Source: Alphaproteobacteria bacterium (GTDB lineage Bacteria; Pseudomonadota; Alphaproteobacteria; MPNO01). From it: a stretch of 64,000 nucleotides of DNA. Position numbers and translations under genes: made by a program. Below, piece by piece: positions 10,383-51,537 of this stretch; the first letter of the stretch is position 1, and each line of letters begins with the position of its first letter. Under the pieces are notes generated by a model that did not search any database, had not been told where the DNA came from, and saw only the letters and a program-made list of their open reading frames with translations. The stretch is from NCBI GenBank assembly GCA_964291675.2, contig OZ219865.1, forward strand, positions 160,001-224,000, given 5' to 3'.

Positions 10383-10541
10383 GGCTTGCCTTTCCGGTGA
10401 TTGCAGGCAACCTACACGAGCCCCGTTCGGCATGACAACGCACCGCGACCTCCTGCGTCAGTTCCCCGCTCCGCCGAGCTCCGCACGACCCCGCCCGCGT
10501 TTCGGTATTGATTTGGTATGGATTCGGCGCCATTTAAGGTC

Positions 10542-10805
10542 ATGGAATTCGAGTTCGATCCGGAGAAGAGCGCGACGAATAAGGACAAGCACGGAATCGA
10601 CTTCGATGACGCGCAGCCCCTTTGGGACGATCCGTGGCTGCTCGAAGTGCCGGCGCGCACGGTGGACGAGCCCCGCTTCATCGTCATCGGAAGGATCGGG
10701 AGCCGGCACTGGTCGGCGATTTGCACCCGCCGCGGCGAACGCATTCGGATCATCTCGGTCCGCCGCGCCCGCAAGGAGGAGGTTGAGCGCTATGAAGGGA
10801 CATGA
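10542..10805 (+). CDS. brnT: BrnT family toxin
   Basis: MEFEFDPEKSATNKDKHGIDF...IRIISVRRAR. Confidence 0.9.
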   Translation: MEFEFDPEKSATNKDKHGIDFDDAQPLWDDPWLLEVPARTVDEPRFIVIGRIGSRHWSAICTRRGERIRIISVRRARKEEVERYEGT

Positions 10806-13543: not shown

Positions 13544-13966
13544 TCACGTCCCGGTCCACGGGTCGATTGCCGCGACGCCCGTGGTTTCGAAGTCGGACAG
13601 GTTGCCGGTGACGACCGTCATCCCGTGCACCAGGGCGGTGGCGGCGATCAGCGCATCGCGCTCCGACCGTGGATCGGGCACGTGCAGCCGGGCGCATTGG
13701 AGGGCCACGGCGGCATCGACAGGCAGCGTGCGTTGCAGAAACTCGGGCAGGACGTGGCGGTCCATCCAGCGCCGCAGCCGCTCCCCCTGCGCCGTGTCGC
13801 GCCGTTCGACGCGCAAGATACCGATTTCGAGCTCCATCAGCGTCAGCGCGGAAATGTAGTAGCTCTCGGCATCCTGCCCGGATATCCACGCGGCGACGCG
13901 GGTATCCGCCTTTCCGTCGCCGAGCTTTCGCAACTCCGAGACGACGTTCGTGTCGAGCAGGAACAT
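13544..13966 (-). CDS. vapC: VapC PIN-domain toxin
   Basis: MFLLDTNVVSELRK...DALIAATALVHGMTVVTGN. Confidence 0.92.
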   Translation of the reverse strand: MFLLDTNVVSELRKLGDGKADTRVAAWISGQDAESYYISALTLMELEIGILRVERRDTAQGERLRRWMDRHVLPEFLQRTLPVDAAVALQCARLHVPDPRSERDALIAATALVHGMTVVTGNLSDFETTGVAAIDPWTGT

Positions 13967-24811: not shown

Positions 24812-24899
24812 GGCGCCGGCCGCCGCCGGGCATTGCCGTTTGATCTCGGTTGCGAAGGCGGCTAGATTCGCAATGGCTGCGCGTATCGACGGGGTACCG

Positions 24900-25091
24900 A
24901 TGAGATTTTTCGGCCGGCGCGCGCTCGGGAACCTTCTCCGCTGCTCGTTCTGCGGCAAGAGCGAGCATGACGTCCGCAAGCTGATCGCCGGCGGGGGTAA
25001 CACGGTGCTCATCTGCGACGAGTGCGTCGAAATCTGCGTGGACATCATCCGCGACTCCAACGGGACCGAGCAGCCCCGTCATCCCGGGTAG
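24900..25091 (+). CDS. Stand-alone ClpX C4-type zinc-finger protein
   Basis: [17 protein letters not shown]...[13 protein letters not shown] followed by a stop; no AAA+ domain. Confidence 0.8.
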
Positions 25092-25267: not shown

Positions 25268-25472
25268 AGACACAAAGAACCCCAGACTGGTAACGACGCG
25301 CTCCGACGCGTAACGACCGATTTTCTACTAACTTGTTGTCGTACATCGTGTTTTTTGCCCTGCATCAGCCTCCCGCCCCTTGCATTTCGACACTCAAGTC
25401 CCTAGATTCGACGCTGACTTGACGTCCAGAACTCACGATTTGATGACTGGTTTTCGGGTCGGGGGAAACGGG

Positions 25473-26657
25473 ATGCCGAAGCGAAGCACCCTCAGACTGA
25501 CCAAGCGGATTGTGGAGCGGCTGAAGACCGAGGGCAAGGACGCGATCTTCTGGGACCGCGACCTGGCCGGCTTCGGTGTGCGGGTCCACACCACCGGGCG
25601 CAAGCTCTACATCGTCCAGTCGCGCGGGCCGGCCGGCCTGAAACGGGTCACCCTCGGCCGGGTCGGCACCGAGACGGTCGACGTGCGCCGGCGCGAGGCC
25701 GCAGCCGTCATCGACCGCATCAAGCGGGGCGAGGATCCGATCCCTTCGGAACCGCCGCCTGAACCCACCGTTGCCGATCTGGCCGAGCGCTGCCTTGAGA
25801 AGTTCGTAGCCGTGCGGTGCAAGCCGAGCACGGCCAGGAACTACCGGCTGGCCATCCAGCACCACATCCTCCCCGCCCTGGGAGAGAAGGCCCTGAAGGA
25901 TGTCGGGCCGGAGGACGTGACGGCGCTGCACCACGCGCTGCGGGACAGGCCCGCGGCGGCCAATCAGGCGACGTGGGTGCTTTCCAGGATGTTTGCGCTC
26001 GCCGAGAACTGGGGGATGGTGCCGCCCGGCCGCAAGCCGACCCGCCATGTCCGCCAATACCGCGCGACATCCCGCGAGCGGTTCCTGACACCCGAGGAGT
26101 ACCGGCTTCTCGGCGCGACGCTGACCAGGCTGGAAACCGAGGGCTCGATGATGCCCTCCGCTGTCGCGGCGATCCGCCTGCTGATGCTGACCGGCTGCCG
26201 GTCGGACGAGATCCTCACCCTGAAATGGGACGACATCGACCGTACGGCGCGGGTGCTGCGGTTGCGCGATTCGAAGACGGGTCCCCGCATGGTGCCGCTG
26301 ACCGGGCCGGTGCTGAAGGTGCTCGACGGCATCGAGCGGGAAGACGGCGTTCCCTGGGTCCTCCGGGGCGCCAAGCGGGGTTCCCGGCTGGCCTGCCTCT
26401 CTCACCACTGGCGGTGGATCAAGCGGGAGACCGGGCTCCGCGACGTGCGGGTCCACGACCTCAGACATTCCTACGCCTCCCGCGCGCTCGCCCTGGGCGA
26501 GGGCCTGCCGGCGATCGGCCGGCTGCTCGGCCATGTCCGGGTCTCCACCACCGCCAAGTACGCTCACCTGGTGCGCAACGCGGAGAAGACAGCCGCCGCC
26601 CGCACCGGCGACAGCATCGGCGCCCAGATCGTTCCGGGCCGCGCCGAGGCGGCGTAA
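25473..26657 (+). CDS. Tyrosine recombinase/integrase with arm-binding domain (copy 1)
   Basis: WDRDLAGFGVRV; TGCRSDE, DSKTG, HDLRHSYAS, LLGH...TTAKYAH. Confidence 0.93.
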   Translation: MPKRSTLRLTKRIVERLKTEGKDAIFWDRDLAGFGVRVHTTGRKLYIVQSRGPAGLKRVTLGRVGTETVDVRRREAAAVIDRIKRGEDPIPSEPPPEPTVADLAERCLEKFVAVRCKPSTARNYRLAIQHHILPALGEKALKDVGPEDVTALHHALRDRPAAANQATWVLSRMFALAENWGMVPPGRKPTRHVRQYRATSRERFLTPEEYRLLGATLTRLETEGSMMPSAVAAIRLLMLTGCRSDEILTLKWDDIDRTARVLRLRDSKTGPRMVPLTGPVLKVLDGIEREDGVPWVLRGAKRGSRLACLSHHWRWIKRETGLRDVRVHDLRHSYASRALALGEGLPAIGRLLGHVRVSTTAKYAHLVRNAEKTAAARTGDSIGAQIVPGRAEAA

Positions 26658-26669
26658 GGAGACCGCGCG

Positions 26670-27848
26670 ATGGCAGTGCACAAGAGGAGCCTCACCAACC
26701 GCGCTGTAGCGGCGCTCAAAGTCGAGCGCGACACGGTCTACTGGGACCGCGACCTCCCCGGCTTCGGGGTCCGGGTCTATCCCGGCGGCGGCAAGGTCTT
26801 CATCGCCCAGGCGCGGGAGCCCGACAAGACAACCAAGCGGGTGACGGTCGGACGGCACGACGTGCTCAATGCCGACCAGGCCCGCCAGCGGGCGGCGTTC
26901 ATCATCACGCGCATCAGGGCGGGCGAGGATCCGGTGCCCCTGCCGCTCGCGGCCAGGCTCAACGGCGGTCCGACCGTGGCCGACCTCGCCGAGCGCTATC
27001 TCGAAGAGCATGCCGCGGTGCGGATCAAGCCGAGGACACGGCTGCGCGTCCGCGGCATGCTCCGCAATCACATCCTGCCGGCTCTCGGCAGGCTGCCGCT
27101 CGAGGCGGTGGAGCCGAGCCATGTCGTCGAGCTGCACCAGACGCTGTCCGACCGGCCGATCACCGCGAACAAGTGCGTCAAGGTCCTGTCGCACATGTAC
27201 CGGCTTGGCGCGGGATGGGGCCTGGTGCCGGAGGGCTTCAATCCCTGCAGGTCGGTCGAGAAATACCCCGAGCGGTCCCGCGAGCGTTTCCTCACCGATG
27301 CCGAGTTCGCCCGGCTGGGGCGGGTGCTGGACGAGGCGGTCGACAGCGGCGGCGCTCCGCTGAAGGCCGTGACGGCGATCCGCCTGCTGATACTGACCGG
27401 CTGCCGCAAGAGCGAGATCCTGACCCTGCGCTGGTCCGACGTCGATCTCGACACCGGCGAGCTCCATCTCGGCGAAGCCAAGACCGGTCCCCGTGCGGTC
27501 CAGCTGGCGCCGACGGCGGTGGCGCTATTGGAAGCGCTGCCGCGACGGAAGGACAGCCCCTGGGTGTTCCCCGGCAACGACCGCAACGGGCGCTACAGCG
27601 GCGGCGGTCTCGACCATGCCTGGCGGACCGTGCGGGCTGCGGCCGGGCTGCAAGACGTCAGGCTTCACGACCTCAGACACAGCTTTGCGTCCCGTGCGCT
27701 GGCGCTCGGCGAGACCCTGCCGGTGATCGGCAAGCTGCTCGGCCACAGCGACATCGAGACGACGGCGCGCTACGCCCATCTGGCGCAGGATTCGATCCAA
27801 GAGACGGCGGAGCGGATCGCCGAGAGCATTGCAGCCGACATACTGTAG
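26670..27848 (+). CDS. Tyrosine recombinase/integrase with arm-binding domain (copy 2)
   Basis: WDRDLPGFGVRV; TGCRKSE, EAKTG, HDLRHSFAS, LLGH...TTARYAH. Confidence 0.93.
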   Translation: MAVHKRSLTNRAVAALKVERDTVYWDRDLPGFGVRVYPGGGKVFIAQAREPDKTTKRVTVGRHDVLNADQARQRAAFIITRIRAGEDPVPLPLAARLNGGPTVADLAERYLEEHAAVRIKPRTRLRVRGMLRNHILPALGRLPLEAVEPSHVVELHQTLSDRPITANKCVKVLSHMYRLGAGWGLVPEGFNPCRSVEKYPERSRERFLTDAEFARLGRVLDEAVDSGGAPLKAVTAIRLLILTGCRKSEILTLRWSDVDLDTGELHLGEAKTGPRAVQLAPTAVALLEALPRRKDSPWVFPGNDRNGRYSGGGLDHAWRTVRAAAGLQDVRLHDLRHSFASRALALGETLPVIGKLLGHSDIETTARYAHLAQDSIQETAERIAESIAADIL

Positions 27849-27872
27849 GGACTCTGCTTGGGTTCCCGCAGC

Positions 27873-27917
27873 GACCCTGTGCGGCTGCACGACTTACGCC
27901 ACTCTTGTGCGGCATAG
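27873..27917 (+). pseudogene. Integrase box-II relic
   Basis: Translates DPVRLHDLRHSCAA*. Confidence 0.5.
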
Positions 27918-39834: not shown

Positions 39835-40056
39835 GGCTTCTCCGTTTCGTCGAGCAGGGCGATTATCCATGTACATGCCACTGCGTACTGCAAATCGAGC
39901 CGCGTGGACGATGGCCTGGACCGCCCACGAGGTCGCAGACCGTCCGACAACCGCAAGTCGAGGCCCACCCAGTGGCGACAAGCCTCCTCGAAGCACGGCT
40001 CGGCGAAGTGGCGCGGCTGGACACGGTCGAGTTCATCCGGGCGCCGTTCCCGCCCG

Positions 40057-40345
40057 GTGTCCACCATCGGTTAATGGACACTATCGGAGGAGGCTTTGCA
40101 GTGGCGCGGCGGACACGCCGTTTCTGGTCGAAGGATGAGAAGCGCCGGATTGTGGCGCAGAATTTCGCGCCGGGCGTTTCGGTGTCCCAGGTCGGGCGCC
40201 GCTACGACGTCAACGCCAACCTGATCTTCAAGTAGCGCCGCGATCCGCGCTATCGGTCGGCGGAGGACGGCGAGGACGCGCCATCCTTCCGGCCGGTGGA
40301 GATGGTGGCGGAGCCGCCATCGGATAAGCATCCGGCCTGATCCGC
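40057..40345 (+). mobile_element. IS66 tnpA (HTH) pseudogene with terminal remnants
   Basis: RRFWSKDEKRRIVAQNFAPGVSVSQVGRRYDVNANLIFK*RRD (in-frame TAG); tgtccaccat...tggacact palindrome; ataagcatccggcctga at ~40324 resembles gtaagcgttcggcctga at 38880. Confidence 0.65.
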
Positions 40346-40705
40346 TGGCCGAGCTCATGGCGAGGCACACTGCAAGCGCCACCGAAGATGCTCCCAACAA
40401 CCGCGTCGAATCCTGTCCCACCCTGAACAGCCAAGGCTTTCCCGGCCGGTTCCTTTTCTTCCGATTCTCGCAAATTTGCGCGGGAAGCCAGTTCGTTTAG
40501 ATTGATAAAATATATTCTGAGCAGTTAACAAATCGGCAACAGTGATACGTCGTGGCGTTCGCGCCGCCGCGATCCCGGTCGCCCGCCGTCGACGACCGCC
40601 GCCATCGGTCCTGCCGCCTGCGGGGACGAGCTCACGCCCCAACTGTCGGATTTTCGTTTGCCTTTGACACTGCCGAGCGAATTGCAAGGGGAGAAGTACC
40701 TGGAC

Positions 40706-41428
40706 ATGGAAACGAGGGGACGGAAGAACGCGGCCGGGGATTGGTTGCAATCGGAGATTCTGGACCGCGGCGTTTCGGCCGCGATGATCGTCATGGCCTT
40801 CGCGGGGTTTGCCGTGGGGTTCGCGGTCAGGAGCCTTCCGATCTTCGATTTCGAGACGGGAGCGTTCTGGACTGTGGTGGTTGCGGTCGCGCTTTTTCTG
40901 TCGTTCGGCATGCTCCTGGTGCGGCTCCGGCGCATCGATGCGACCTGGATCCCTGGATTGCGGGCCGAGCGCCGGGTGGGGGACGTCATCGAGCATGCCC
41001 TCGCGCGGCCGGGCTGCGCGTTCGCGCATGACGTCAAGGAAGCCCTCGGCGGTTCGGGCAATGTCGATCACGTCGTGATGACCCCGGTGGGGGTTTGGGT
41101 GGTGGAAACCAAATCGAACTGGCTCGACAAGCGACACTTTCCCCCGGCGCTGCGTCAGGTCGCCGGGAATGTGAGCCGCGTCCGCCGCCATCTCGACACG
41201 TCTCTTCCGGTTCGCGGTGCGCTGATCATCGCCGACCGCTGGGATCGTTCGCTGGAGTCGCGGCACGACTGGAACGGAGAGCCGGTGACGGCGTTCGGTC
41301 TCAAGACGTTCTGGCACCTGCTGCGCGCGGAGGGCGCGCAAGTCGGAGACGGCGGGTCCGCACAGGCTACGGCGAGGGTCGAAAAAGCCGTATGGGACCT
41401 CGGTTCCACCCGCCATCTGGGGTCATGA
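40706..41428 (+). CDS. NERD (nuclease-related domain) membrane protein
   Basis: Two hydrophobic helices, then GLRAERRVG...HDV...GNVDHVVMTPVGVWVVETK. Confidence 0.8.
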   Translation: METRGRKNAAGDWLQSEILDRGVSAAMIVMAFAGFAVGFAVRSLPIFDFETGAFWTVVVAVALFLSFGMLLVRLRRIDATWIPGLRAERRVGDVIEHALARPGCAFAHDVKEALGGSGNVDHVVMTPVGVWVVETKSNWLDKRHFPPALRQVAGNVSRVRRHLDTSLPVRGALIIADRWDRSLESRHDWNGEPVTAFGLKTFWHLLRAEGAQVGDGGSAQATARVEKAVWDLGSTRHLGS

Positions 41429-42366
41429 ACCGGTGGCGGTGGCGGATTCGTCGACGGATGCGGCGGACGAGGCGGTTCGCGAGGATCCTGATCCTGGCCG
41501 CGATCGCGGCGGGCGCGGCTGCCGCGCTGCCGACTTTCGACCGGAGCGGCATCGGGGCCTCGTCGGGGCGGTTCATCGAGGCTGTTGAACAAGAGGTCGG
41601 TCCAGCCGCGGACCGCGTTGCGGAATGGCTGGAACGACGGGCGCGCGCGACCGGCGACCGCATCGCCGCGCTCACCGGCGAATTCGGCGACACGGCCGAA
41701 ACCGAACGGGAACACCGTGTTCGCGTCTACCGCGGCCCCCCGAACCGGTCGCGCCCGGCGTTGTCGGGCCCGGCGCGGGCTATCGACGGCGACACGCTCG
41801 ACGTGGCGAACGTGCGGGTTCGACTCCACGGCATCGACGCGCCGGAGAGCGCCCAGCGCTGCCGGACCTCCGGTCGGTACTGGCTTTGCGGGCGGGAGGC
41901 AACGCGGGCCCTGGCGGCCCGGATCGGCGGCCGACCGGTGGCATGCGCGGAGCGCGACCGGGACGGTTACGGGCGGGTCGTGGCGGTCTGCGCCGTCGAC
42001 GGGCTGGACCTCAACGAATGGATGACGGCCGAGGGCTGGGCCTTCGCCTACCGGCGCTACTCCGGCGACTATGTCGCCGCGGAGTCGCGTGCGCGCGCGG
42101 CGCGGCGGGGCATCTGGCGCGGCGAGGTCGTGGAGCCTTGGGAATGGCGCCGCGGCAAGCGTCTTCCGGGTTCCGCGCCAGCCGCGCGGCGGGACGGTGG
42201 GCGATGCCGGATCAAGGGGAACATCGGCAGGGACGGAAGGCGCATCTACCATGTGCCGGGCGGGCAATATTACGGCCGGACGCGGATCGACACGTCGCGG
42301 GGCGAGCGCTGGTTCTGCTCGGAGCGCGAAGCGCGGGCGGCGGGATGGCGGCGGTCGAACCGGTGA
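41425..42366 (+). CDS. Thermonuclease (SNase) family protein with a C-terminal Cys-containing domain
   Basis: AIDGDTL, RLHGIDAPE, DRDGYGR, CRIKGNI...ERWFCSEREARAAGWR. Confidence 0.88.
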   Translation: MNRWRWRIRRRMRRTRRFARILILAAIAAGAAAALPTFDRSGIGASSGRFIEAVEQEVGPAADRVAEWLERRARATGDRIAALTGEFGDTAETEREHRVRVYRGPPNRSRPALSGPARAIDGDTLDVANVRVRLHGIDAPESAQRCRTSGRYWLCGREATRALAARIGGRPVACAERDRDGYGRVVAVCAVDGLDLNEWMTAEGWAFAYRRYSGDYVAAESRARAARRGIWRGEVVEPWEWRRGKRLPGSAPAARRDGGRCRIKGNIGRDGRRIYHVPGGQYYGRTRIDTSRGERWFCSEREARAAGWRRSNR

Positions 42367-42800: not shown

Positions 42801-43229
42801 TCAGTTGCCGGGGTCCAGCTTCGCGAGGACCAACCGCAAGACCTCGACAATCGTACTTTGTTCATCGACTGCGAAGGCCCTGAACACCGTGATCAGCTCA
42901 CCCTCACAGGCGTCCTCGCTCCCTTCACTCAAAACCCGCCGTTCCGATCCCGGATGCGGCGAGCTCCGCGCGATCCGATCGTCCGCCCCCTGCCGTGTGC
43001 CTTTCGGGTGCTGCCCGTTGGCGCCGTTCCGTCTCAGCCATTCCTCGATCAGACCGAACTTCCCGAGCAGGCGAAGGTTCGTCGCTGAAGGCATCGCCAC
43101 GCCTCGTTCCCATTTCCCGATCGTTTTCTCCGAGACGCCCAATTTGCTTCCGAGACTCTCCAGCGTATCCGCGCCGGCCGTTCGCCTGCGTCGAATTTCC
43201 TCGCCGAGTGCGCGATCGACCTTGCCCAT
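42801..43229 (-). CDS. XRE-family helix-turn-helix regulator
   Basis: IRRRR...TLESLGSKLGVSEKTIGKWERGVAMPS. Confidence 0.7.
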   Translation of the reverse strand: MGKVDRALGEEIRRRRTAGADTLESLGSKLGVSEKTIGKWERGVAMPSATNLRLLGKFGLIEEWLRRNGANGQHPKGTRQGADDRIARSSPHPGSERRVLSEGSEDACEGELITVFRAFAVDEQSTIVEVLRLVLAKLDPGN

Positions 43230-43567
43230 CGGTATTTTCTCCTTTCGAGACAAGCGATCTCGCAAGCTGGCAGCCGGTCCGGTCCTCGCGACCGGCACTC
43301 TCGGACGCCCGATCTGCGTACACAGAGCGAGCTGCGGCGCTCGCCGCCGGGAGAGCCGGTAATTCATGCGCTGTTGGTCTCTATCCCGCTGAAATTGCGC
43401 GACTATTTCGCAAAAGTAACCGACTGGTTACCTTCCCGGCCGAAACGTTACTTTTGGGTGGTGGACGGTCGCGGCGTCCTCCACAAATCTTCCCCGAGGT
43501 CGCTTCGCTTCGCGAACCGCCGCCGCTTCGGCGCAGCGGCGGCGTACACACAAGGGGGAAGAATTCA

Positions 43568-44125
43568 GTGGCCTGCGATCCCGACCCGAACACCGTCCCG
43601 CCTCCGGGAGGACCGTCCCGGAAGCGCCCCGTCGCGGGCTATCTCCGCTCCGCGACCGAGCTCGAAGGAGAGACCCTCCGCGAGCAGCTCGAAGCCATCG
43701 TCCGGTACGCGCGCGCCCATGGCATGCAGCTCATTCGGGTCTATTGCGACGAGTGCGGGAGCGGCCTGCGGATCGACGGCCGCTCCGGCCTCGGGCAGAT
43801 GCTTCGCGATATCGAGAGTGGGGACGGCGACTTCGACGCCATTCTGTTGTCCGATCCCAGCCGCTGGGGCCGCTTCCATATCGCGGACGAAAGCGCCTGC
43901 CTTGAATACGCCTGCCGCGCGACAGGCATCGCGGTCCACTATTGCGCCGAGGGATCGGGCGACGACGGAACGCCGTTTTCGGGCATCGCAAAATCTCTGA
44001 AACGCCGCATGGCCGAAGAGCACGGGCGTGAAACGCTTGCCCGCGGGCACCACGCCGCCCAGACCGGGGACGGAGATGCCGCGGCGCCCGCGGGCGGAAC
44101 GGCACCGAAGGCGAAGATCCGGTGA
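43568..44125 (+). CDS. Resolvase-domain-only protein lacking the catalytic serine
   Basis: YLRSAT (canonical YxRxST), YCDECGSG, DPSRWGRF; paralog of the downstream recombinase N-domain. Confidence 0.75.
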   Translation: MACDPDPNTVPPPGGPSRKRPVAGYLRSATELEGETLREQLEAIVRYARAHGMQLIRVYCDECGSGLRIDGRSGLGQMLRDIESGDGDFDAILLSDPSRWGRFHIADESACLEYACRATGIAVHYCAEGSGDDGTPFSGIAKSLKRRMAEEHGRETLARGHHAAQTGDGDAAAPAGGTAPKAKIR

Positions 44126-45699
44126 CCGGCGACCCCGATCCCAAGGGCGACTCGAATCCCGAACCGGCGAGGCCCCTTCGCCGCGCCGTCGCCTACCTCC
44201 GGATGTCTACCGAGCTCCAGGAATATTCGACTGAGAACCAGCTCGCGGCCATCGAGAAATACGCCGCCGAGAACGAGATGGAGCTCGTTGCCACCTATTC
44301 GGACGAGGCGAGAAGCGGCCTGCGATACGAGAACCGGCCCGGCATGCAGCAAATGCTGGCGGATGCGCAAAGCGCGGATGCCGGTTTCGATACGATCCTC
44401 GTTTACGACATAAGCCGATGGGGCCGGTTTCAGGATCAGGACGAGGGCGCCGCCCTCGAATTCGCCTGTAGAAAGGCCAGGGTTCAGGTCCACTACTGCA
44501 TGGATCAATTCGTCAACGACGGCAGCCCGATGTCGACGGTGATGAAGAGCCTCGGGCGATATGCGGCCGCCGATTACAGCAGCAAACTCTCGGCAAAGGT
44601 GTTCGCCGGCCAGTGCCGGCTCACCGAGCGCGGCTACCGCCAGGGCGGCATGGCGGGCTACGGGCTGCGCCGGATGCGCATAGACCAGAAAGGAGAGCCG
44701 CAGGGCATTCTCGACTGGGGCCAGCGCAAGAGCCTGCAGACCGACCGGGTGATCCTCGTGCCCGGACCGGAAGAGGAAGTCGAGACCGTCCGGTGGATGT
44801 ACCGCGAGTTCATCGACGGAGGCAGGCTGGAAGGCGAGATCGCCGCGGCTCTCAACGAGAAGGGGATCGCGACGGATCTCGGCCGGCCCTGGACGCGCGG
44901 CACCGTCCACCAGGTTCTGACCAACGAGAAATACATCGGCAACAACGTCTTCAACCGGCATTCCTACAAGCTGAAGAAGACGCACAAGGACAACCCGCCC
45001 GAGGAATGGGTCCGGTTGGACGGCGCCTTCGAAGCGATCGTGGATCCGCGACTGTTCTTCACCGCCGAGGGCATGATCCGTCAGCGCAACCGCCGGTTCT
45101 CCGACGACGAGATGATCGACCGGCTGGAAAAGCTCCTGAAGAAAAAGGGCTTCCTCTCCGGTTTCATCATCGACGAGGCCGACGACATGCCGTCGAGCGG
45201 CTGTTACGCCTCGCGCTTCGGCAGCCTGACGCGCGCCTATTCGCTGGTCGGCTTCACCCCCGACCGGGACTGCCGCTACATCGAGATCAACCGGACGCTC
45301 CGCCAAATTCACGCGCGGGAGGTCGCCAGGGCGATCGCCGAAATCGAAAAGCTCGGCGGCGCCGTTTCCCAAGACGCGGCGACGGACCTCCTGACCGTGA
45401 ACGATGAGTTCACCGCTTCCATCGTCATCGCCCGCTGCCGGCACACCAAGGCCGGTTCCCGGCGCTGGAAGGTCCGCCTCGACACCGGGCTCGCCCCCGA
45501 CCTGACGGTCGCCCTCCGGATGGACGACGCCAATCAAGCCATCCTCGACTACTACCTCCTGCCGCTTTCCATTCTCGACACGAACCGCCTCGGGCTCGCC
45601 GAAGAAAACGGCCTGATGCTGGACGCCTTCCAGTTCGACACCCTGGACCGTTTCTTCGCCATGGCAGAGCGGGCCCAGATTTCGGAGATCTCACAATGA
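44122..45699 (+). CDS. Large serine recombinase
   Basis: YLRMSTELQEYS, DISRWGRF, GGMAGYGLRR, recombinase domain WTRGTVHQVLTNEKYIG. Confidence 0.93.
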   Translation: MTGDPDPKGDSNPEPARPLRRAVAYLRMSTELQEYSTENQLAAIEKYAAENEMELVATYSDEARSGLRYENRPGMQQMLADAQSADAGFDTILVYDISRWGRFQDQDEGAALEFACRKARVQVHYCMDQFVNDGSPMSTVMKSLGRYAAADYSSKLSAKVFAGQCRLTERGYRQGGMAGYGLRRMRIDQKGEPQGILDWGQRKSLQTDRVILVPGPEEEVETVRWMYREFIDGGRLEGEIAAALNEKGIATDLGRPWTRGTVHQVLTNEKYIGNNVFNRHSYKLKKTHKDNPPEEWVRLDGAFEAIVDPRLFFTAEGMIRQRNRRFSDDEMIDRLEKLLKKKGFLSGFIIDEADDMPSSGCYASRFGSLTRAYSLVGFTPDRDCRYIEINRTLRQIHAREVARAIAEIEKLGGAVSQDAATDLLTVNDEFTASIVIARCRHTKAGSRRWKVRLDTGLAPDLTVALRMDDANQAILDYYLLPLSILDTNRLGLAEENGLMLDAFQFDTLDRFFAMAERAQISEISQ

Positions 45700-46586
45700 C
45701 CGACACCATTACGATCGAGAGGATCCCGATCGAGCGCATCGTCGTACTCAATCCCCGGGTCCGGGACGCGAAGAAATTCGCCGAGATCGTCGACAGCATC
45801 GGGAAGGTCGGCCTCAAGCAGCCCATCAAGGTGAGCCGCACTCGGGGCGCCGACGGCGAAGTCGCCTACAACCTGGTCTGCGGACAGGGCCGCATGGAGG
45901 CTTTTCAGGCGCTCGAACAGACGGAGATTCCGGCCATCGTTACCGACCTGTCCGAACAGGACAGCCTGGTCTCGGGCCTTGTCGAGAATGTCGCCCGGAG
46001 CAAGCCTCTTCCGGGCGACCTGTTCCGGGCGATCGGCGATCTTGTCGGACGCGGCTACTCCGACGCGAAGATCGGCGCCAAGATCGGCTATTCGGCTACC
46101 CATGTCGGGAGAATCCGCCGCCTCCTGAAAGCCGGCGAGGAACGGCTGCTGATTGCGGTGGAAACCGGAAAGATGCCGCTGCATGTCGCCGTCGCCATCG
46201 CGAAGGCAGAAGACGGCGGGGCGCAGGAGGTCCTCGACAAAGCATATAAGGGCGGCGAATTGACACTTAGCCAAATGCCGCGCGCAAAGAGTGCGATCGA
46301 GCACCGCGAACGATACGGCAAAGCGCTAAAGCGTGACACTACCGGCGATCGGAAACCGGCCTCGAAGGCGTACGATGCGCTCACCCGGAGACTGAAGGAG
46401 GCGGTCAAGAACCACGGTGCGCTGATCGAGAGCGCCGATACCGCCTCGGAACATCTGAAGATTCTCATGCAGGGCCTTCGCACGCTTCTGTCCGAACACC
46501 ATTTCCGGACCCTCCTGCGTGCCGAGCAGGTGCAGACGATGCCGGCTCCTCTGGCGCGCCTCGTCGAAGCCCGGGAGGAGACCTGA
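45696..46586 (+). CDS. ParB/RepB/Spo0J-like protein 1
   Basis: IVDSIGKVGLKQPIKV, YNLVCGQGRMEAF, GLVENVAR, HTH. Confidence 0.85.
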   Translation: MTDTITIERIPIERIVVLNPRVRDAKKFAEIVDSIGKVGLKQPIKVSRTRGADGEVAYNLVCGQGRMEAFQALEQTEIPAIVTDLSEQDSLVSGLVENVARSKPLPGDLFRAIGDLVGRGYSDAKIGAKIGYSATHVGRIRRLLKAGEERLLIAVETGKMPLHVAVAIAKAEDGGAQEVLDKAYKGGELTLSQMPRAKSAIEHRERYGKALKRDTTGDRKPASKAYDALTRRLKEAVKNHGALIESADTASEHLKILMQGLRTLLSEHHFRTLLRAEQVQTMPAPLARLVEAREET

Positions 46587-46587
46587 C

Positions 46588-47484
46588 ATGGCCGGCAAGG
46601 TGACTATCGGGTTCGAGCCGGAGAGCGTGACGATTCCCATAACCGACATTCTGCCGCTGAGGCTGGTCGACGATACCGCCCGCAAGCGCCACAAATTTCG
46701 TCAGATCGCCGCGTCCATCCGCGAAATCGGCATCGTGCAACCGCCCATCGTGGCACGCCGGTCCGACGGAAAGCACAAATACCTGCTTCTCGACGGCCAT
46801 CTCAGAATGGAGATTCTGAAGGACCTCGGTATCGACGAAATCGCCTGTCTGGTCTCTCTCGACGACGAGGCTGTCACTTTCAATCGCCAGGTGAACCGCC
46901 TCTCGCCGCTCCAGGAGCACAAGATGATTCTGAAGGTCATCGAGCGCGGCGTTCCCGAGGAGCGCATCGCGCAGGCGCTGAACGTCAATGTCGCGACCAT
47001 CCGCGCCAAACGGGACCTTCTCAATGGCATCTGTCCCGAGGTTGCTGCACTCCTCAAGGACAAGCACTGCCCCATCAACTCTTTCCAGGCGCTCAAGAAG
47101 GTGGAGCCCCTGCGGCAGTACGAGATCGCGAAGACGATGGTCGCGGTCAACGACTACTCGGTTGCCTACGCGAGGGCTCTCGTCTCGGCGAGCTTGCCGG
47201 ACCAACTGGTGAACCCCGGCAAGGCCAGGAAGCACAGAAAGGTCTCTCCGGAGGAAATCGATCAGATCGAACGGGAGCTGGCCAACCTCCAGGGTGACGT
47301 CGAACGGATCGAAGAGACCTTCGCAGCCGACCATCTGAATCTGGTGCTGGCCACGTCGTATGTCCGTTCGTTGCTCCGCAACGCCCAGATAACGGAATAC
47401 ATGGAGACGTATCACCGGAACCTTCTCGAGGAATTCCGGACGATCTGCGAGGCGACGGCGCCGATGGCGGAAGCCGCCGAATAG
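46588..47484 (+). CDS. ParB-like protein 2 with RepB C-terminal domain
   Basis: IAASIREIGIVQPPIV, YLLLDGHLR, NRLSPLQEHKMI, LLNGICPEV. Confidence 0.85.
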   Translation: MAGKVTIGFEPESVTIPITDILPLRLVDDTARKRHKFRQIAASIREIGIVQPPIVARRSDGKHKYLLLDGHLRMEILKDLGIDEIACLVSLDDEAVTFNRQVNRLSPLQEHKMILKVIERGVPEERIAQALNVNVATIRAKRDLLNGICPEVAALLKDKHCPINSFQALKKVEPLRQYEIAKTMVAVNDYSVAYARALVSASLPDQLVNPGKARKHRKVSPEEIDQIERELANLQGDVERIEETFAADHLNLVLATSYVRSLLRNAQITEYMETYHRNLLEEFRTICEATAPMAEAAE

Positions 47485-48135
47485 CACGGGTTCGGCGCCG
47501 GGCGCCGAACCGACGGTCGATCCGCCACGGCGGGGCAGGGCGATGGATCGGCCAGAATGGGGACCCGGACCCGACAAGCGCGGGGACCGCGGGAGACGCC
47601 GCACTGTGGGGCGGATCGAGCGCGGCGGTGGGGATGGCGGCGAACCCGTTCGGAGCCCACCAGGCCGGCCGTCATAGGGCCGGCCGAGAGGGCGGTCGAT
47701 CCGCGGCCGCCCTCGCCCCCGGAATCGAACACGGTCGGGAATGTCGTCCTGGCGCTGCCCGAGAGTTCGGACTGCCGCCGAAGGCAGGCAACTGGCAGCC
47801 GTTCGCCATCACCGTCCCTCCATCGGCATCTCGAAGCGGGTAGCCACGGCCGCATGGCCCAGCCCCGACTCGGCCGCCGGCACGCTTCCGGTACACCGCG
47901 CTTCCGTGCGCGACCCGCGACCTCCGACGACACGCGATGGCCCGGCCGCCGTTTGCCCCCAATATCCGACGGCCCCCTGCCCGAAGTCTCGCCCGGTCGC
48001 TTTCCACACACGCAACCGGCTTCGTCCCCCTGCCGCAGCATGAAGGAGAGAGGAGCGGGCCGGCGTCGGGGCGCGGTGAATCGGGCTCGGAGGATGTCCG
48101 GGCCGCGCCGCCTCCCCGCCATTCGGAGCATGCCC

Positions 48136-49161
48136 ATGACTTTGCCCGAGACCATCTCCGCCGACTACACGCTGCGCCCGAGCGAGCTCGCCGAGGTTCT
48201 CGCCACCCTGGTCGAGGCCCGCCAGCCGACCATGCTGTGGGGCGGGCCCGGAACCGGCAAGAGCCAGGTCTCCAACCAGACGGCCGACCGCCTCGCATAC
48301 ACCTATCTCGACATCCGCGGCCCGCTCCTCGATCCCGTGGACCTGCGCGGTATCCCCTGGCGCGACGAGTTCGGCCGCACCCGCTGGGCGCCGCCCGCCT
48401 TCCTTCCCCCGACCGACAGCACCGAGCAATACCTCATCAACCTGGAGGAGCTTCCTTCTTCCGTGCCCATGGTGCAGGTCGCCCTGTTCCAGCTCTGCCT
48501 GGAACGCCGGATCGGCGAGTACGAACTGCCTCCGGGCGCAGCGATCATCGCCTGCGGCAACCGCGAGCAGGACCGCTCGATCGTGCACCGCATGCCCGCC
48601 CCGCTCGCCAATCGCTTCGTCCATCTGGAGATCCGGGTCGACGCGAGGGACTGGCTTGCCTGGGGAGCCGCGAACGGGATCGCGCCGGAAGTGCTGTTCT
48701 TCATCGAGCTGGAACCGGACCTGCTTCACGGCTTCAATCCCCAGTCGAAGGAGCACGCCTTCCCGAGCCCCCGGAGCTGGGAGTTCGCTTCCAACATCGT
48801 CAAGAACCGCAACGGCCTCGATGCCGGTGTCGAAAGGGCGCTGTTCCGGGGCACGGTGGGCGAGGCCGCGGCGGTCGAGTTCACCTCGTTCCTGAAGGTG
48901 TGGCGCGAGCTGCCCCACCCGAGGGCCGTCCTCGACGATCCCGGCAACGCCGACATTCCGGAGAACGCCAGCACCCTGATGGCGCTCTGCGGCTCCCTCT
49001 ACCGGATGGCCTCCGACGTCAATCTGGACGCCATTGTCACCTACGCGACACGGCTTCGACGCGAAGTCGGCGAGTCGCTCGTCGGCGCCTGCGTGCGCCG
49101 CGAGCCCGCGCTCCAGCGCTCGCCCGCCTTCATCCGCTGGGCGGCGGCAAAGACGCAGTGA
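48136..49161 (+). CDS. MoxR/dynein-related AAA+ ATPase
   Basis: WGGPGTGKS, DLRGIP, INLEEL, ACGNR, LANRFVHL, PSPRSWE. Confidence 0.88.
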   Translation: MTLPETISADYTLRPSELAEVLATLVEARQPTMLWGGPGTGKSQVSNQTADRLAYTYLDIRGPLLDPVDLRGIPWRDEFGRTRWAPPAFLPPTDSTEQYLINLEELPSSVPMVQVALFQLCLERRIGEYELPPGAAIIACGNREQDRSIVHRMPAPLANRFVHLEIRVDARDWLAWGAANGIAPEVLFFIELEPDLLHGFNPQSKEHAFPSPRSWEFASNIVKNRNGLDAGVERALFRGTVGEAAAVEFTSFLKVWRELPHPRAVLDDPGNADIPENASTLMALCGSLYRMASDVNLDAIVTYATRLRREVGESLVGACVRREPALQRSPAFIRWAAAKTQ

Positions 49162-49225
49162 CGGAGGACGCCGCCGCCCTTGGCGTCCCCCCGCGAACGC
49201 TCCGCCAACCCGAGAGGAGGAACCG

Positions 49226-50125
49226 ATGGACCTCAACCGCGACGCAATGCTGGTCGGGCTGCACATCGCCGCCTGGTCCGGCCGGCTCTACGACCGCCAG
49301 GCGAGCGACCATGTCGCCGTCGCCCACGAAGCCTCGACCGCCGCCGGGCGCTACAACAAGCGCCTGCTGCCCAAGGCCGCCTTCGCCGCCCTCACCGCGA
49401 CCATGAGCGAGGCGAGGGCCAAGCACTATGCCAACTCGCTTCCCTGGGACGACAAGGGCGCGCGGCTGCTCACCGTGGCCAACTACGAGCACTACACGGA
49501 GCTCATGGACGGGTTCCGGGAGCGCGTGGTGCGCCAGCGCGCCCGCTTCATCGAGGATTACGACGACTACATCGACCAGGCCCGGCTCGACCTCGGCAAG
49601 CTCTTCCGCATCGAGGACTATCCCTCCAAGGAAGACCTCCAGGGCAAGTTCGCCATCCGCTACCGCATCACCCCGGTGCCGGACGCGGACCATTTCATCG
49701 CCCAGCTCGCCTCCGACGACACCGAGCGGGTGAAGCGCGACATCGAGAGCCACATCGAGGAGCAGCTCCACGGTGCGGTGGGCGACCTCTACCGCCGCTT
49801 CGGCGAGGCGATCGAACGGGTCTCGGAGCGGCTGCGGGAGGACGACGAGGGCAAGCCGCTGGTGTTCCGCGACACGATGATCTCGAACATCCGCGACCTA
49901 GTGGACGTGGTGCCGCGTCTCAACATATTCGGCGACGAGACCCTGGCGCAGCTCTGCGCGCAGGTGAAGGAGAAGATCGCGAGCGTCGAGCCGAACGCGC
50001 TTAGGCCATCGAAGACCTTCGACCCGGCGGCCCGGGCCCAGGTCAAGCGCGACGCCGACGCGCTCGCGGAGAAGTTCGCGGGGTATTTCGGGGCGCGGAC
50101 CGAGCCGGTGCGGGAGGCCGCCTGA
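49226..50125 (+). CDS. Conserved mobile-element protein (DUF3150-like)
   Basis: GLHIAAWSGR...AGRYNKRLLPK...SLPW...DYPS; GAGGAGG RBS. Confidence 0.6.
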   Translation: MDLNRDAMLVGLHIAAWSGRLYDRQASDHVAVAHEASTAAGRYNKRLLPKAAFAALTATMSEARAKHYANSLPWDDKGARLLTVANYEHYTELMDGFRERVVRQRARFIEDYDDYIDQARLDLGKLFRIEDYPSKEDLQGKFAIRYRITPVPDADHFIAQLASDDTERVKRDIESHIEEQLHGAVGDLYRRFGEAIERVSERLREDDEGKPLVFRDTMISNIRDLVDVVPRLNIFGDETLAQLCAQVKEKIASVEPNALRPSKTFDPAARAQVKRDADALAEKFAGYFGARTEPVREAA

Positions 50126-51537
50126 TGGCCGCCCGCGTGCTCGGCGAGTCCGCGCTCCGCGTCAGCGACTGCGTGACGGAGCTTCTGCGCAAGCAGCCCT
50201 TCTTCGGCAGCCTGGTGCTGAGGCTCCCGCTGCGCCCCGATCCCACCCGCAAGACGCTGGCGACGGACGGGAACGAGATCCGCTATTCGCCGCAGTGGGT
50301 GGCGGAGACGGAGGCGCACCTGATCGAGACCGCGATGGCGCGGGTGGTGATGGCGTGCGCCTTGAAACACCACACCCGCCGAGGCGAGCGCGATCCCGAG
50401 CGCTGGCAGATGGCCTCGCAGCTCGTCACCCATGCGCTCATCCGCGACGCCGGGTTCACGCTGCCGCCCGACGCCGAAGCCTGGGACGACCTCAGCGTCG
50501 AGCAGGCCTACGACCGCCTGCCGACGCCCGAGAACGACGATTCCGGCGACGATGGCGACGCCCCGTCCGGTGCTGACGATGCGGGTGCCTCCGCCGCCGC
50601 GGCCCAATCCTCACCAGACGGCGATAACGATGGCGCCGGCGACCCGTCCGATTCTGGCAATGGCGAGGAACCCCGGGACGAGCACGGGGACGATGACGAC
50701 CCGGACGAAGGGAACGGGGACGGCCAGAACGAGGCCAGCCAGGACCAGGGCGAGGATGCCGGATCCGATGCGCCGCCGAGCCACGATCCGTCCGGCACCG
50801 GCGAGGTCATGGACGCGAACGCGCGCGCGGGCGACGACGGCGATTCCGGCGAGGTCCCGCTGGACGTGGCCGCCGAGGAGCAGGCCTGGGACGAGGCCAT
50901 GCACCAGGCCCTCAACATCGCCCGCGCCGAAGGCAAGGTGCCGGGTCGGGTCGAGGAAACGGTGAAGGGCGCCCATGCCAGCACGCTCGACTGGCAGACG
51001 CTGCTGCGCCGCTACATGACCGACACGGCGAAGAGCGACTATTCCTGGAGCGTGCCCAACCGGCGCTTCATCGACTCCGGCCTCTACCTGCCGTCCATCC
51101 GTTCCGAGAGCATCGCGATAATCGCCTTCATCATCGACGTCTCGAGGTCGCTCCCGACCCCGACCCTCGCCGAGTTCTGGGGGGTGCTGCGCCAGGTCGC
51201 GACGGAAATCAGGCCCGAGCGCGTCATCGTCCTCCAGGTCGACACGATCCTGCAGGACGTGGCCGAATACGCCGCCGACGAGCTTCCCGAGGAGATCGTC
51301 GTCAAGGGCCGGGGCGGCACCGACTACCGCCCGGGCTTCGCATGGCTCGACGAGCAGGGCATCCGGCCCGGGGTGTGCCTGTATTTCACGGACATGGAGT
51401 GCTCCGACTACCCGGAGACCGAACCGACCTTCCCGGTGTTGTTCTGCGATTACGGCGACAAGGCAAGCCCCTGGCGGCACCCCGCGCCCTGGGGCGAGCG
51501 CATCGACATCGCCCCGGTCCGGGGAGCCCGGCCATGA
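50125..51537 (+). CDS. DUF2201/vWA-like domain protein
   Basis: PFFGSL, LATDG, acidic linker, DWQTLLRRY, PNRRF, IDVSRS (MIDAS), GRGGTDYRP. Confidence 0.82.
   Translation: MAARVLGESALRVSDCVTELLRKQPFFGSLVLRLPLRPDPTRKTLATDGNEIRYSPQWVAETEAHLIETAMARVVMACALKHHTRRGERDPERWQMASQLVTHALIRDAGFTLPPDAEAWDDLSVEQAYDRLPTPENDDSGDDGDAPSGADDAGASAAAAQSSPDGDNDGAGDPSDSGNGEEPRDEHGDDDDPDEGNGDGQNEASQDQGEDAGSDAPPSHDPSGTGEVMDANARAGDDGDSGEVPLDVAAEEQAWDEAMHQALNIARAEGKVPGRVEETVKGAHASTLDWQTLLRRYMTDTAKSDYSWSVPNRRFIDSGLYLPSIRSESIAIIAFIIDVSRSLPTPTLAEFWGVLRQVATEIRPERVIVLQVDTILQDVAEYAADELPEEIVVKGRGGTDYRPGFAWLDEQGIRPGVCLYFTDMECSDYPETEPTFPVLFCDYGDKASPWRHPAPWGERIDIAPVRGARP

Follow-up and report, generated by a model that had tools for sequence, protein, structure and literature searches.

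A large serine recombinase operon with a nucleophile-less catalytic-domain paralog, two ParB-like proteins, and a conserved RNA-like element at the edge of a conjugative region in an alphaproteobacterium

Which function can a serine recombinase catalytic domain have after the loss of its nucleophile, and why is it encoded directly in front of a large serine recombinase and a pair of ParB-like proteins? This question is raised by a locus of an alphaproteobacterium of the GTDB lineage MPNO01 (GenBank assembly GCA_964291675.2, contig OZ219865.1, positions 160,001 to 224,000). The complete stretch of 64,000 nucleotides (nt) is called the window, and positions refer to its numbering; C1 and C2 are contigs of the same genome. 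The initial annotation of the window had described four co-directional genes at positions 43568 to 47484, joined by a GTGA overlap, an ATGA overlap, and a 1-nt gap, and had interpreted them as one coupled operon. Gene calls based on a listing of open reading frames and on junctions read off the sequence confirm this description, with the overlaps located between dRes and LSR (GTGA) and between LSR and ParB1 (ATGA) and the gap between ParB1 and ParB2. Domains were assigned by Pfam and NCBIfam profile searches, and the four genes, whose lengths are given in amino acids (aa), are as follows.

43568-44125, plus strand: dRes, 185 aa, GTG start; catalytic domain PF00239 alone, motif YLRSAT, Ala/Gly/Pro-rich tail
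44122-45699, plus strand: large serine recombinase (LSR), 525 aa; PF00239 and PF07508, motif YLRMST, atypical C-terminal 200 aa
45696-46586, plus strand: ParB1; ParB N-terminal domain and helix-turn-helix (HTH), box GxGRxEA
46588-47484 (from ATG), plus strand: ParB2; ParB N-terminal domain, HTH, and full RepB-C, box GHxRxx[V/I]

The four-gene arrangement is confirmed beyond chance by the 183 homologs of dRes that were found in a database search at E≤0.001 and by a gene order that recurs in 13 further loci. The short first gene had been read as a paralog of the recombinase catalytic domain with a Ser-to-Ala exchange of the nucleophile and without a DNA-binding domain, and the comparison bears this out. 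dRes is 44% identical to residues 1-159 of LSR (E 3e-42); both proteins start with M..DPDP and contain SRWGRF, whereas YLRSAT of dRes stands against YLRMST of LSR. The PF00239 match (E 1.9e-17) spans profile positions 1-133 of 145, and no second domain, including DNA-binding ones (HTH, recombinase/zinc ribbon), was detected with Pfam and NCBIfam. Since the identity to the LSR N terminus includes the common start, dRes was probably born by tandem duplication of the 5' end of the LSR gene and would then have kept the catalytic-domain fold and its arginines while losing the nucleophile.

The exchange is fixed. Among the 120 homologs listed, YLRSAT is present in 106 and YLRSPT in one, and the other 13 have no such motif in their first 90 residues, several of them being far shorter than dRes. 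Counted on the 111 homologs of at least 160 aa, position 29, i.e., the place of the canonical Ser in Y-x-R-x-S-T, is occupied by Ala in 110 and by Pro in one; the preceding Ser28 is invariant (111/111), Arg27 is kept in 110/111, and the blocks YCDECGSG and DPSRWGRF are near-invariant. The C-terminal tail is poorly conserved, with protein lengths from 165 to 206 aa. Pairwise ratios of nonsynonymous to synonymous substitution rates (dN/dS) across 14 orthologs amount to 0.44 for dRes, 0.25 for LSR (0.28 for its catalytic domain alone), 0.36 for ParB1, and 0.30 for ParB2. Because of Ala in 110/111, Ser in 111/111, and a dN/dS of 0.44, dRes is a protein under purifying, somewhat relaxed selection with a fixed nucleophile replacement. 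Random decay of the short gene in homologous loci, which the initial annotation had named as the outcome that would count against its proposal, was not observed; the value of 0.44 compares with 0.25-0.36 in the neighboring genes.

Two other explanations of dRes have to be weighed against these counts. A slowly decaying, functionless remnant of a partial tandem duplication would agree with the confinement of dRes to one clade, with the highest dN/dS of the four genes, with the variable tail and length, and with a broken copy in one related locus (L006; frameshift and ~207-nt deletion) next to intact LSR, ParB1, and ParB2 genes. However, the frames of the 183 homologs are open down to ~50% identity, the pentad YLRSA is kept in 110/111 alongside the further invariant blocks, dN/dS is well below 1, and the start codon and the ribosome-binding region, with the Shine-Dalgarno-like run AAGGGGGAAG 8 nt 5' of GTG in the window, are conserved across related loci. 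We therefore regard the remnant as a very doubtful explanation. That dRes is catalytically dead is inferred from the exchange at position 29, and in view of the invariant neighboring Ser a shift of the nucleophile retains a small probability. dRes might then still be catalytic via Ser28 (R-S-A) and form a two-subunit recombinase with LSR that is comparable to CcrA/CcrB, in agreement with the invariance of this residue and with the retained arginines of the YLR and SRWGR motifs. Yet Pfam detects no DNA-binding domain, the alignment with its own LSR partner places Ala at the canonical nucleophile position, and to our knowledge no serine recombinase with a shifted nucleophile exists. The probability of a catalytic dRes is thus close to negligible.

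Can dRes be a directionality factor of its neighbor, as the initial annotation had considered? LSR is a regular member of its family in the N-terminal part (PF00239, 6e-22; PF07508, 1.2e-22), its nucleophile Ser29 is present in 17/17 aligned orthologs, and a PDB profile search retrieved the catalytic domains of the TP901-1 integrase and TnpX and the recombinase domain of SPbeta (YokA). NCBIfam adds a weak CcrB match. In large serine recombinases, a zinc ribbon with a coiled coil is the target of directionality factors. No Pfam match at E≤0.01 was found past residue 322 of LSR, the PDB profile matches end at residue 321, and neither search detected a zinc ribbon or coiled coil. The C-terminal ~200 aa match nothing in Pfam or among the PDB profiles. 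An AlphaFold2 model calculated from 17 sequences has a mean pLDDT of 56, with values below 50 in this C-terminal third, and is too low in confidence for a fold search. Since the two target domains are undetected, a classical directionality-factor role of dRes is unlikely. The prediction of a complex of dRes (residues 1-165) and LSR (residues 1-175) resulted in a score of 0.00, which weighs neither for nor against binding.

The two ParB proteins are divergent paralogs with an identity of 28%. ParB1 is matched by ParB_N (E 1.5e-11) and weakly by RepB, whereas ParB2 shows the reverse pattern (RepB, E 1.7e-43; ParB_N weak), and both align with the structures of Spo0J, Noc, and KorB over the N-terminal domain and the HTH in the PDB profile search. 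The box G-Q/E-G-R-x-E-A of ParB1 is kept in 57/57 homologs and is of the GxxRxxA type, which we take to be the nucleotide-binding box of the cytidine triphosphate (CTP) switch of ParB proteins. Gly and Arg of the ParB2 box G-H-x-R-x-x-V/I are present in 69/69 homologs, with Val/Ile in place of Ala. A ParA protein had not been seen in the initial annotation, and in agreement with this no AAA_31-type ParA is encoded on the 1.15-Mb contig C1, the three PF13614 matches of the genome being all located on C2; the CbiA type (PF01656) was not part of this search. No parS site was identified, although a systematic search for ParB-bound palindromes was not made. The NCBIfam model ICE_PFGI_1_parB scores ParB2 with 4.2e-05, i.e., below the family cutoff. 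The reading as an anti-phage defense system was dropped, since PADLOC gave no support: its models have zero matches for dRes, LSR, and ParB1, and ParB2 matches only the ParB-like N terminus of a methyltransferase model (2e-07).

How old is the association of the four genes? A scan for LSR in one genome per species resulted in 20 loci, onto which the window proteins were mapped. LSR is followed by ParB1 in 19/20 and additionally by ParB2 in 18/20 loci. dRes is located directly 5' in 13/20 (L001-L005, L007-L011, L014, L016, and L017), whose LSRs are 74-90% identical to that of the window, while the LSRs of the dRes-free loci L012, L013, L015, and L019 are 54-64% identical. A plasmid collection contains 74 records with an LSR homolog, all with less than 60% identity and 41 of them typed as non-mobilizable. 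The dRes query matches only the N termini of full-length LSR genes on these replicons, and at least 80% of the query is covered in 0/66 records. The trio LSR-ParB1-ParB2 is thus widespread without dRes: it stands next to unrelated genes on many plasmids and also on chromosomes, and it is present in loci with more distant LSRs. dRes is therefore a clade-specific addition to an older core rather than an ancestral part of it. Plasmids of Agrobacterium, Mesorhizobium, Sphingobium, Burkholderia, and Roseomonas often carry the cassette, and the trio was also found on a 7.5-kb faecal contig with a GC content of 39%.

L013 and L015 have a 3.9-kb unit in common (74% identity) between unrelated flanks, which consists of a small co-directional XRE gene with palindromes of the type TTGTA-N4-TACAA, LSR, ParB1, ParB2, and a noncoding element. 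Cassette DNA of L013 is 99% identical to that of L018 over 3.3 kb, and L012 and L013 share 6.2 kb with 90% identity; the three loci stem from metagenome-assembled genomes labeled Alphaproteobacteria, Nitrospinaceae, and Verrucomicrobiales, which reflects either a recent transfer or a binning error. A locus of an Agathobacter phage (L171) has two adjoining recombinase genes but no ParB pair. A recurrent site-specific deletion from ParB1 to the noncoding element was considered for L003 and L093 and rejected, as the two loci have different junctions and a further element with a tyrosine-recombinase-like gene interrupts L003.

The region upstream of dRes differs between the related loci, and so does the coupling within the operon. 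The divergent XRE regulator reported for the window was confirmed, and the intergenic region contains a palindrome with a further repeat.

42801-43367, minus strand: XRE-family HTH regulator, divergent from the operon; HTH_3, E 2.7e-07 (Pfam)
43411-43456, no strand assigned: probable operator between XRE and dRes, with GTAACC-N4-GGTTAC at 43416-43431 and a further GTTAC repeat at 43447-43456

XRE homologs are present 5' of dRes in L003-L008, L011, and L017. The palindrome is kept in L003, L004, L005, and L011 and partly in L007 and L008, and it is absent wherever the XRE gene is absent, so that it is probably an operator. Cassette capture at this palindrome in the manner of integrons was rejected, because the palindrome tracks the presence of the XRE gene as expected for an operator. 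In six loci (L001, L002, L009, L010, L014, and L016), a gene for a Cys/His-rich protein of 207 aa (L009:5290-5913) replaces the XRE gene 5' of dRes, and dRes and LSR are separated by 150-290 nt. The tight coupling of dRes and LSR is hence real in the window but confined to one subgroup.

A component that the initial annotation had missed follows ParB2. It is a structured element of ~130-160 nt with the following parts, listed together with an adjacent hairpin that is not kept in other loci.

47489-47511, plus strand: GC-rich perfect hairpin (self inverted repeat) directly 3' of the ParB2 stop codon
47557-47715, plus strand: structured RNA-like element just 3' of ParB2, recognized by conservation across loci and covariation
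47564-47585: helix P1
47588-47624: helix P2, enclosing P3 (47599-47614)
47627-47661: helix P4, enclosing P4b (47637-47649)
47663-47685: hairpin P5
~47688-47714, plus strand: terminal 11-bp hairpin

The element is 82-98% identical in 17 loci, compared with 65-90% for the adjacent ParB2 DNA over the same loci; the contrast is greatest for L002 and L016, with 98% versus 72%. By this measure its conservation far exceeds that of any cassette gene, and no other component of the cassette is as unusual. It occurs once in the genome of the window, and ten plasmid records carry it too, among them plasmids of Sphingobium, Paracoccus, and Marinibacterium. An exact 22-mer taken from it retrieved at least 120 stretches from metagenomes and 20 from viral contigs, and a profile search confirmed the element in 138/140 of the collected stretches, which sets a minimum of 138 for the metagenomic and viral loci; L152 and L159, with a phage portal/capsid context, were discarded as chance matches of the 22-mer within a coding region. 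Full-length copies with at least 400 nt of upstream DNA number 73, and in 59 of them the C terminus of a ParB2 is encoded upstream and ends at a median distance of 50 nt before the element. The ParB2 proteins preceding the metagenomic and viral copies are only 38-52% identical to that of the window. Downstream, no conserved gene was found, the largest family occurring in 8/86 loci. The other 14 of the 73 copies are orphans without ParB2 upstream, and those of one element subtype (L147, L153, L157, L166, and L098) are followed by a convergent gene of ~615 aa for a pectate-lyase/tailspike-like protein (PF12708).

Does the element act as RNA? The RNAalifold prediction from 128 distinct sequences comprises nested helices with 30 pairs, 16 of which covary by compensatory changes. 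The proportion of alignment cells that pair is 96.4%, versus 33-46% with partners slid by one to three columns, and the 185 cells with double changes contrast with 45.1 ± 5.4 in shuffles, none of 500 reaching 185. P4 and P4b contain the 22-mer of the collection and owe their invariance to ascertainment, so that P1, P2, P3, and P5 provide the covariation evidence. G-U cells exceed A-C cells (210 versus 49), which favors the plus strand, and indels of 1-3 nt disfavor a coding sequence. Searches against Rfam 15 gave no match at E≤1 over 12 kb, and a search with 261 nt resulted only in sub-threshold scores for nhaA-II (25.7 bits, threshold 70.4) and Pyrobac-1 (15 bits, threshold 40). The 5' edge, near GGGGACC, is sharp and lacks a conserved promoter, and the 3' end consists of terminator-like hairpins.

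The element could alternatively act as double-stranded DNA, e.g., as a recombination site of LSR or a loading site of the ParB proteins. It adjoins the genes of three DNA-binding proteins, its sharp edge without a conserved promoter would fit a site, and palindromic protein sites can mimic covariation, the pair 107-138 showing as many as 24 A-C cells. The helices are nested, however, with P2 around P3 and P4 around P4b, the G-U excess favors one strand, and the terminator-like hairpins at the 3' end are more in keeping with a transcript. Moreover, the element is near-invariant where the ParB proteins are only 38-52% identical, whereas protein sites usually covary with their proteins. We consider a DNA site improbable, albeit deserving more credit than either alternative discussed for dRes.

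What kind of replicon or mobile element harbors the cassette? In comparison with three relatives of the same genus (G001, G008, and G010), the genome contains a 92-kb insertion directly downstream of dcd, which extends from window position ~24.8 kb to C1:276.8 kb (C1:184818-276828); dcd of the relatives is joined directly to the DNA that is 92 kb away here. The insertion looks composite: in addition to the LSR cassette and an F-type conjugation module, it contains tyrosine recombinases, low-GC cargo, an IS256-type transposase, and an adhesin region. The conjugation genes, located 17-53 kb downstream of the cassette within the 40 kb that follow the window, encode SSB, Toprim, a TrwC relaxase-helicase, TraG_N, TraN, TraU, TrbI, TraC, TraE, and an HTH_17 protein. 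With a relaxase, type IV secretion genes, and an insertion relative to its relatives, the region qualifies as an integrative and conjugative element (ICE).

Homology with 13 related loci starts at the 3' end of the XRE gene and in L002, L006, and L016 runs to the right into an AAA/DUF2201 backbone; in L007 and L008, it skips this block and resumes at position ~51805. The block, at 48130-51537, encodes an AAA ATPase, a protein of unknown function, and a DUF2201 protein (metallopeptidase and VWA-like). To judge from these alignments, the conserved F-type conjugative backbone has the cassette at its left edge, i.e., at the position where an integrase module is expected. All PF00589 matches within the insertion, at C1:186-188 kb and 266 kb, lie outside the conjugative backbone, which counts for LSR as the enzyme of the backbone.

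Several further features of the surroundings were recorded. A small open reading frame for a ClpX-type C4 zinc finger at 24859-25054 has similar DNA (77-84%) at C2:3381736 and in relatives and may represent a mobile-element gene that recurs. Genes for NERD-domain and staphylococcal-nuclease-like proteins (40658-42366) and a fragment of an IS66-type transposase (39972-40235) lie immediately to the left of the cassette. The core-genome part of the window contains a BrnT toxin gene and a PIN-domain gene (10518-10805 and 13544-13966). tRNA genes are absent from the window and from 18 related loci. The search for the right flank in relatives yielded matches to a repeated adhesin family and was uninformative.

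Taken together, we tentatively favor a self-regulated cassette for recombination and maintenance that forms the left edge of an F-type ICE, a reading to which we assign slightly less than an even chance of being right as a whole. The operon would be controlled by the XRE regulator and its operator and would comprise dRes-LSR-ParB1-ParB2 with a structured RNA at the 3' end. LSR would integrate and excise the conjugative backbone, or resolve and fuse replicons where the cassette resides on plasmids. dRes would most likely enter LSR oligomers via the catalytic-domain/E-helix interface and damp or gate strand cleavage. ParB1 and ParB2 might serve as ParA-less, Noc/KorB-like nucleotide-switch clamps that organize or silence the DNA of the element, rather than as a classical partition system, and the conserved RNA-like element might be transcribed with or just after the operon as a partner or regulator of the cassette. 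The initial annotation was thus right in what it observed and in part supported in its interpretation, a regulatory role of dRes and accessory roles of the ParB proteins being plausible proposals.

A number of observations weigh against this reading. Three tyrosine recombinase genes reside inside the 92-kb insertion, one at C1:266 kb and two in tandem at the left junction (~25300-27900, plus strand; PF00589 at 26082-26570 and 27288-27788). Because the cassette lies 18 kb inside the insertion and these enzymes are present, it does not follow that LSR is the integrase. Meaningful direct or inverted repeats were found neither between the left flank of the cassette and the presumed right end of the backbone nor at the junctions of the 92-kb insertion, and no att sites were identified. 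The trio occurs on plasmids of Marinibacterium, Agrobacterium, and Methylibium among unrelated genes (toxin-antitoxin, Tn7-like, IS3), which is easier to reconcile with a self-contained cassette than with a dedicated ICE integrase. To these points must be added the undetected zinc ribbon and coiled coil of LSR, the invariant Ser beside the Ala of dRes with its room for a shifted nucleophile, the high dN/dS of dRes and its broken copy in L006, the orphan copies of the structured element and the ascertainment of P4 and P4b, and the failure to detect the element behind the trios of L019, L025, L026, and L170, which are more distant.

Some of these observations would be explained if the regulator, LSR, the two ParB genes, and possibly the RNA constituted an autonomous hitch-hiking cassette, either self-mobilizing or a module for stabilization, multimer resolution, or silencing, instead of the integrase module of the ICE. 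The isolated 3.9-kb unit of L013 and L015, the trio on the three plasmids just mentioned, the 74 plasmid records with 41 non-mobilizable replicons, the low-GC faecal contig, and the availability of tyrosine recombinases in the insertion all point in this direction. On the other hand, neither terminal repeats nor target duplications were identified, and the edges of the unit are a promoter/operator and terminator-like hairpins, which are also expected from ordinary recombination of a functional module. Furthermore, in the clade of the window the right side is always continuous with the same conjugative backbone. An autonomous cassette is accordingly a serious competitor but on balance unlikely.

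A more far-reaching proposal is a ribonucleoprotein system for DNA rearrangement, in which the ~135-nt RNA would be the obligatory partner (scaffold, guide, or switch) of LSR or the ParB pair and dRes would have been recruited as a regulatory subunit in one alphaproteobacterial lineage. Structured noncoding elements fixed at one end of a recombinase cassette, as observed here, are known from the bridge RNA of IS110 and the omega RNA of IscB/TnpB; the enzyme families differ, however, and no Rfam family reaches its threshold for the element. We rate this proposal as quite improbable, somewhat below the DNA site. If true, neither an RNA-dependent serine recombinase or ParB system nor a natural pseudo-recombinase subunit would have a precedent.

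How does the cassette compare with characterized systems? Like the integrases of TP901-1 and SPbeta, TnpX of Tn4451, and CcrA/CcrB of SCCmec, LSR has an N-terminal catalytic domain with Ser followed by a recombinase domain, but it differs from them in the lack of a detectable zinc ribbon or coiled coil, in its unmatched C-terminal ~200 aa, and in its operon-fixed association with two ParB genes. Accessory resolvase subunits at res sites II and III of Tn3/gamma-delta and S10A resolvase mutants illustrate that catalytic domains can participate in complexes without cleaving DNA. The Tn3/gamma-delta accessory subunits consist of the active enzyme's own polypeptide and bind DNA, whereas dRes is a separate, naturally nucleophile-less protein without a DNA-binding domain. 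ParB1 and ParB2 resemble the CTP-switch clamps ParB, Noc, and KorB in the N-terminal domain and HTH, and ParB1 also in its box of the GxxRxxA type; they deviate by the absence of an AAA_31 ParA on C1 (the CbiA type lying outside the search), by the constant pairing of two divergent paralogs, and by V/I for the Ala of the ParB2 box. Partition and maintenance modules of ICEs (ParB of the PFGI-1/ICEclc type, srpMRC of SXT) likewise have ParB-family genes near one end of a conjugative element, but the cassette scores far below their family cutoffs, has no ATPase partner, and couples its genes to a serine recombinase. In the literature covered, which does not extend to subscription journals, no description was found of the element, of a naturally occurring dead resolvase paralog, or of an operon combining a recombinase with two ParB genes. 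The cassette is accordingly regarded as an unstudied variant of serine-recombinase modules with a newly noticed, conserved RNA-like element.

As tools for genome engineering, large serine recombinases are highly valued, and how they are regulated is under active study. If true, control by a conserved nucleophile-less catalytic-domain subunit would be new for this enzyme family. That the recombinase is constantly paired with two ParA-less ParB proteins suggests that ParB-type clamps are also employed in processes other than the segregation of chromosomes or plasmids. The element, which occurs in metagenomes from soil to ocean and is absent from Rfam, is a candidate for a new RNA class tied to mobile DNA. 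Since the cassette is common on plasmids, its function matters for how such replicons are maintained or moved.

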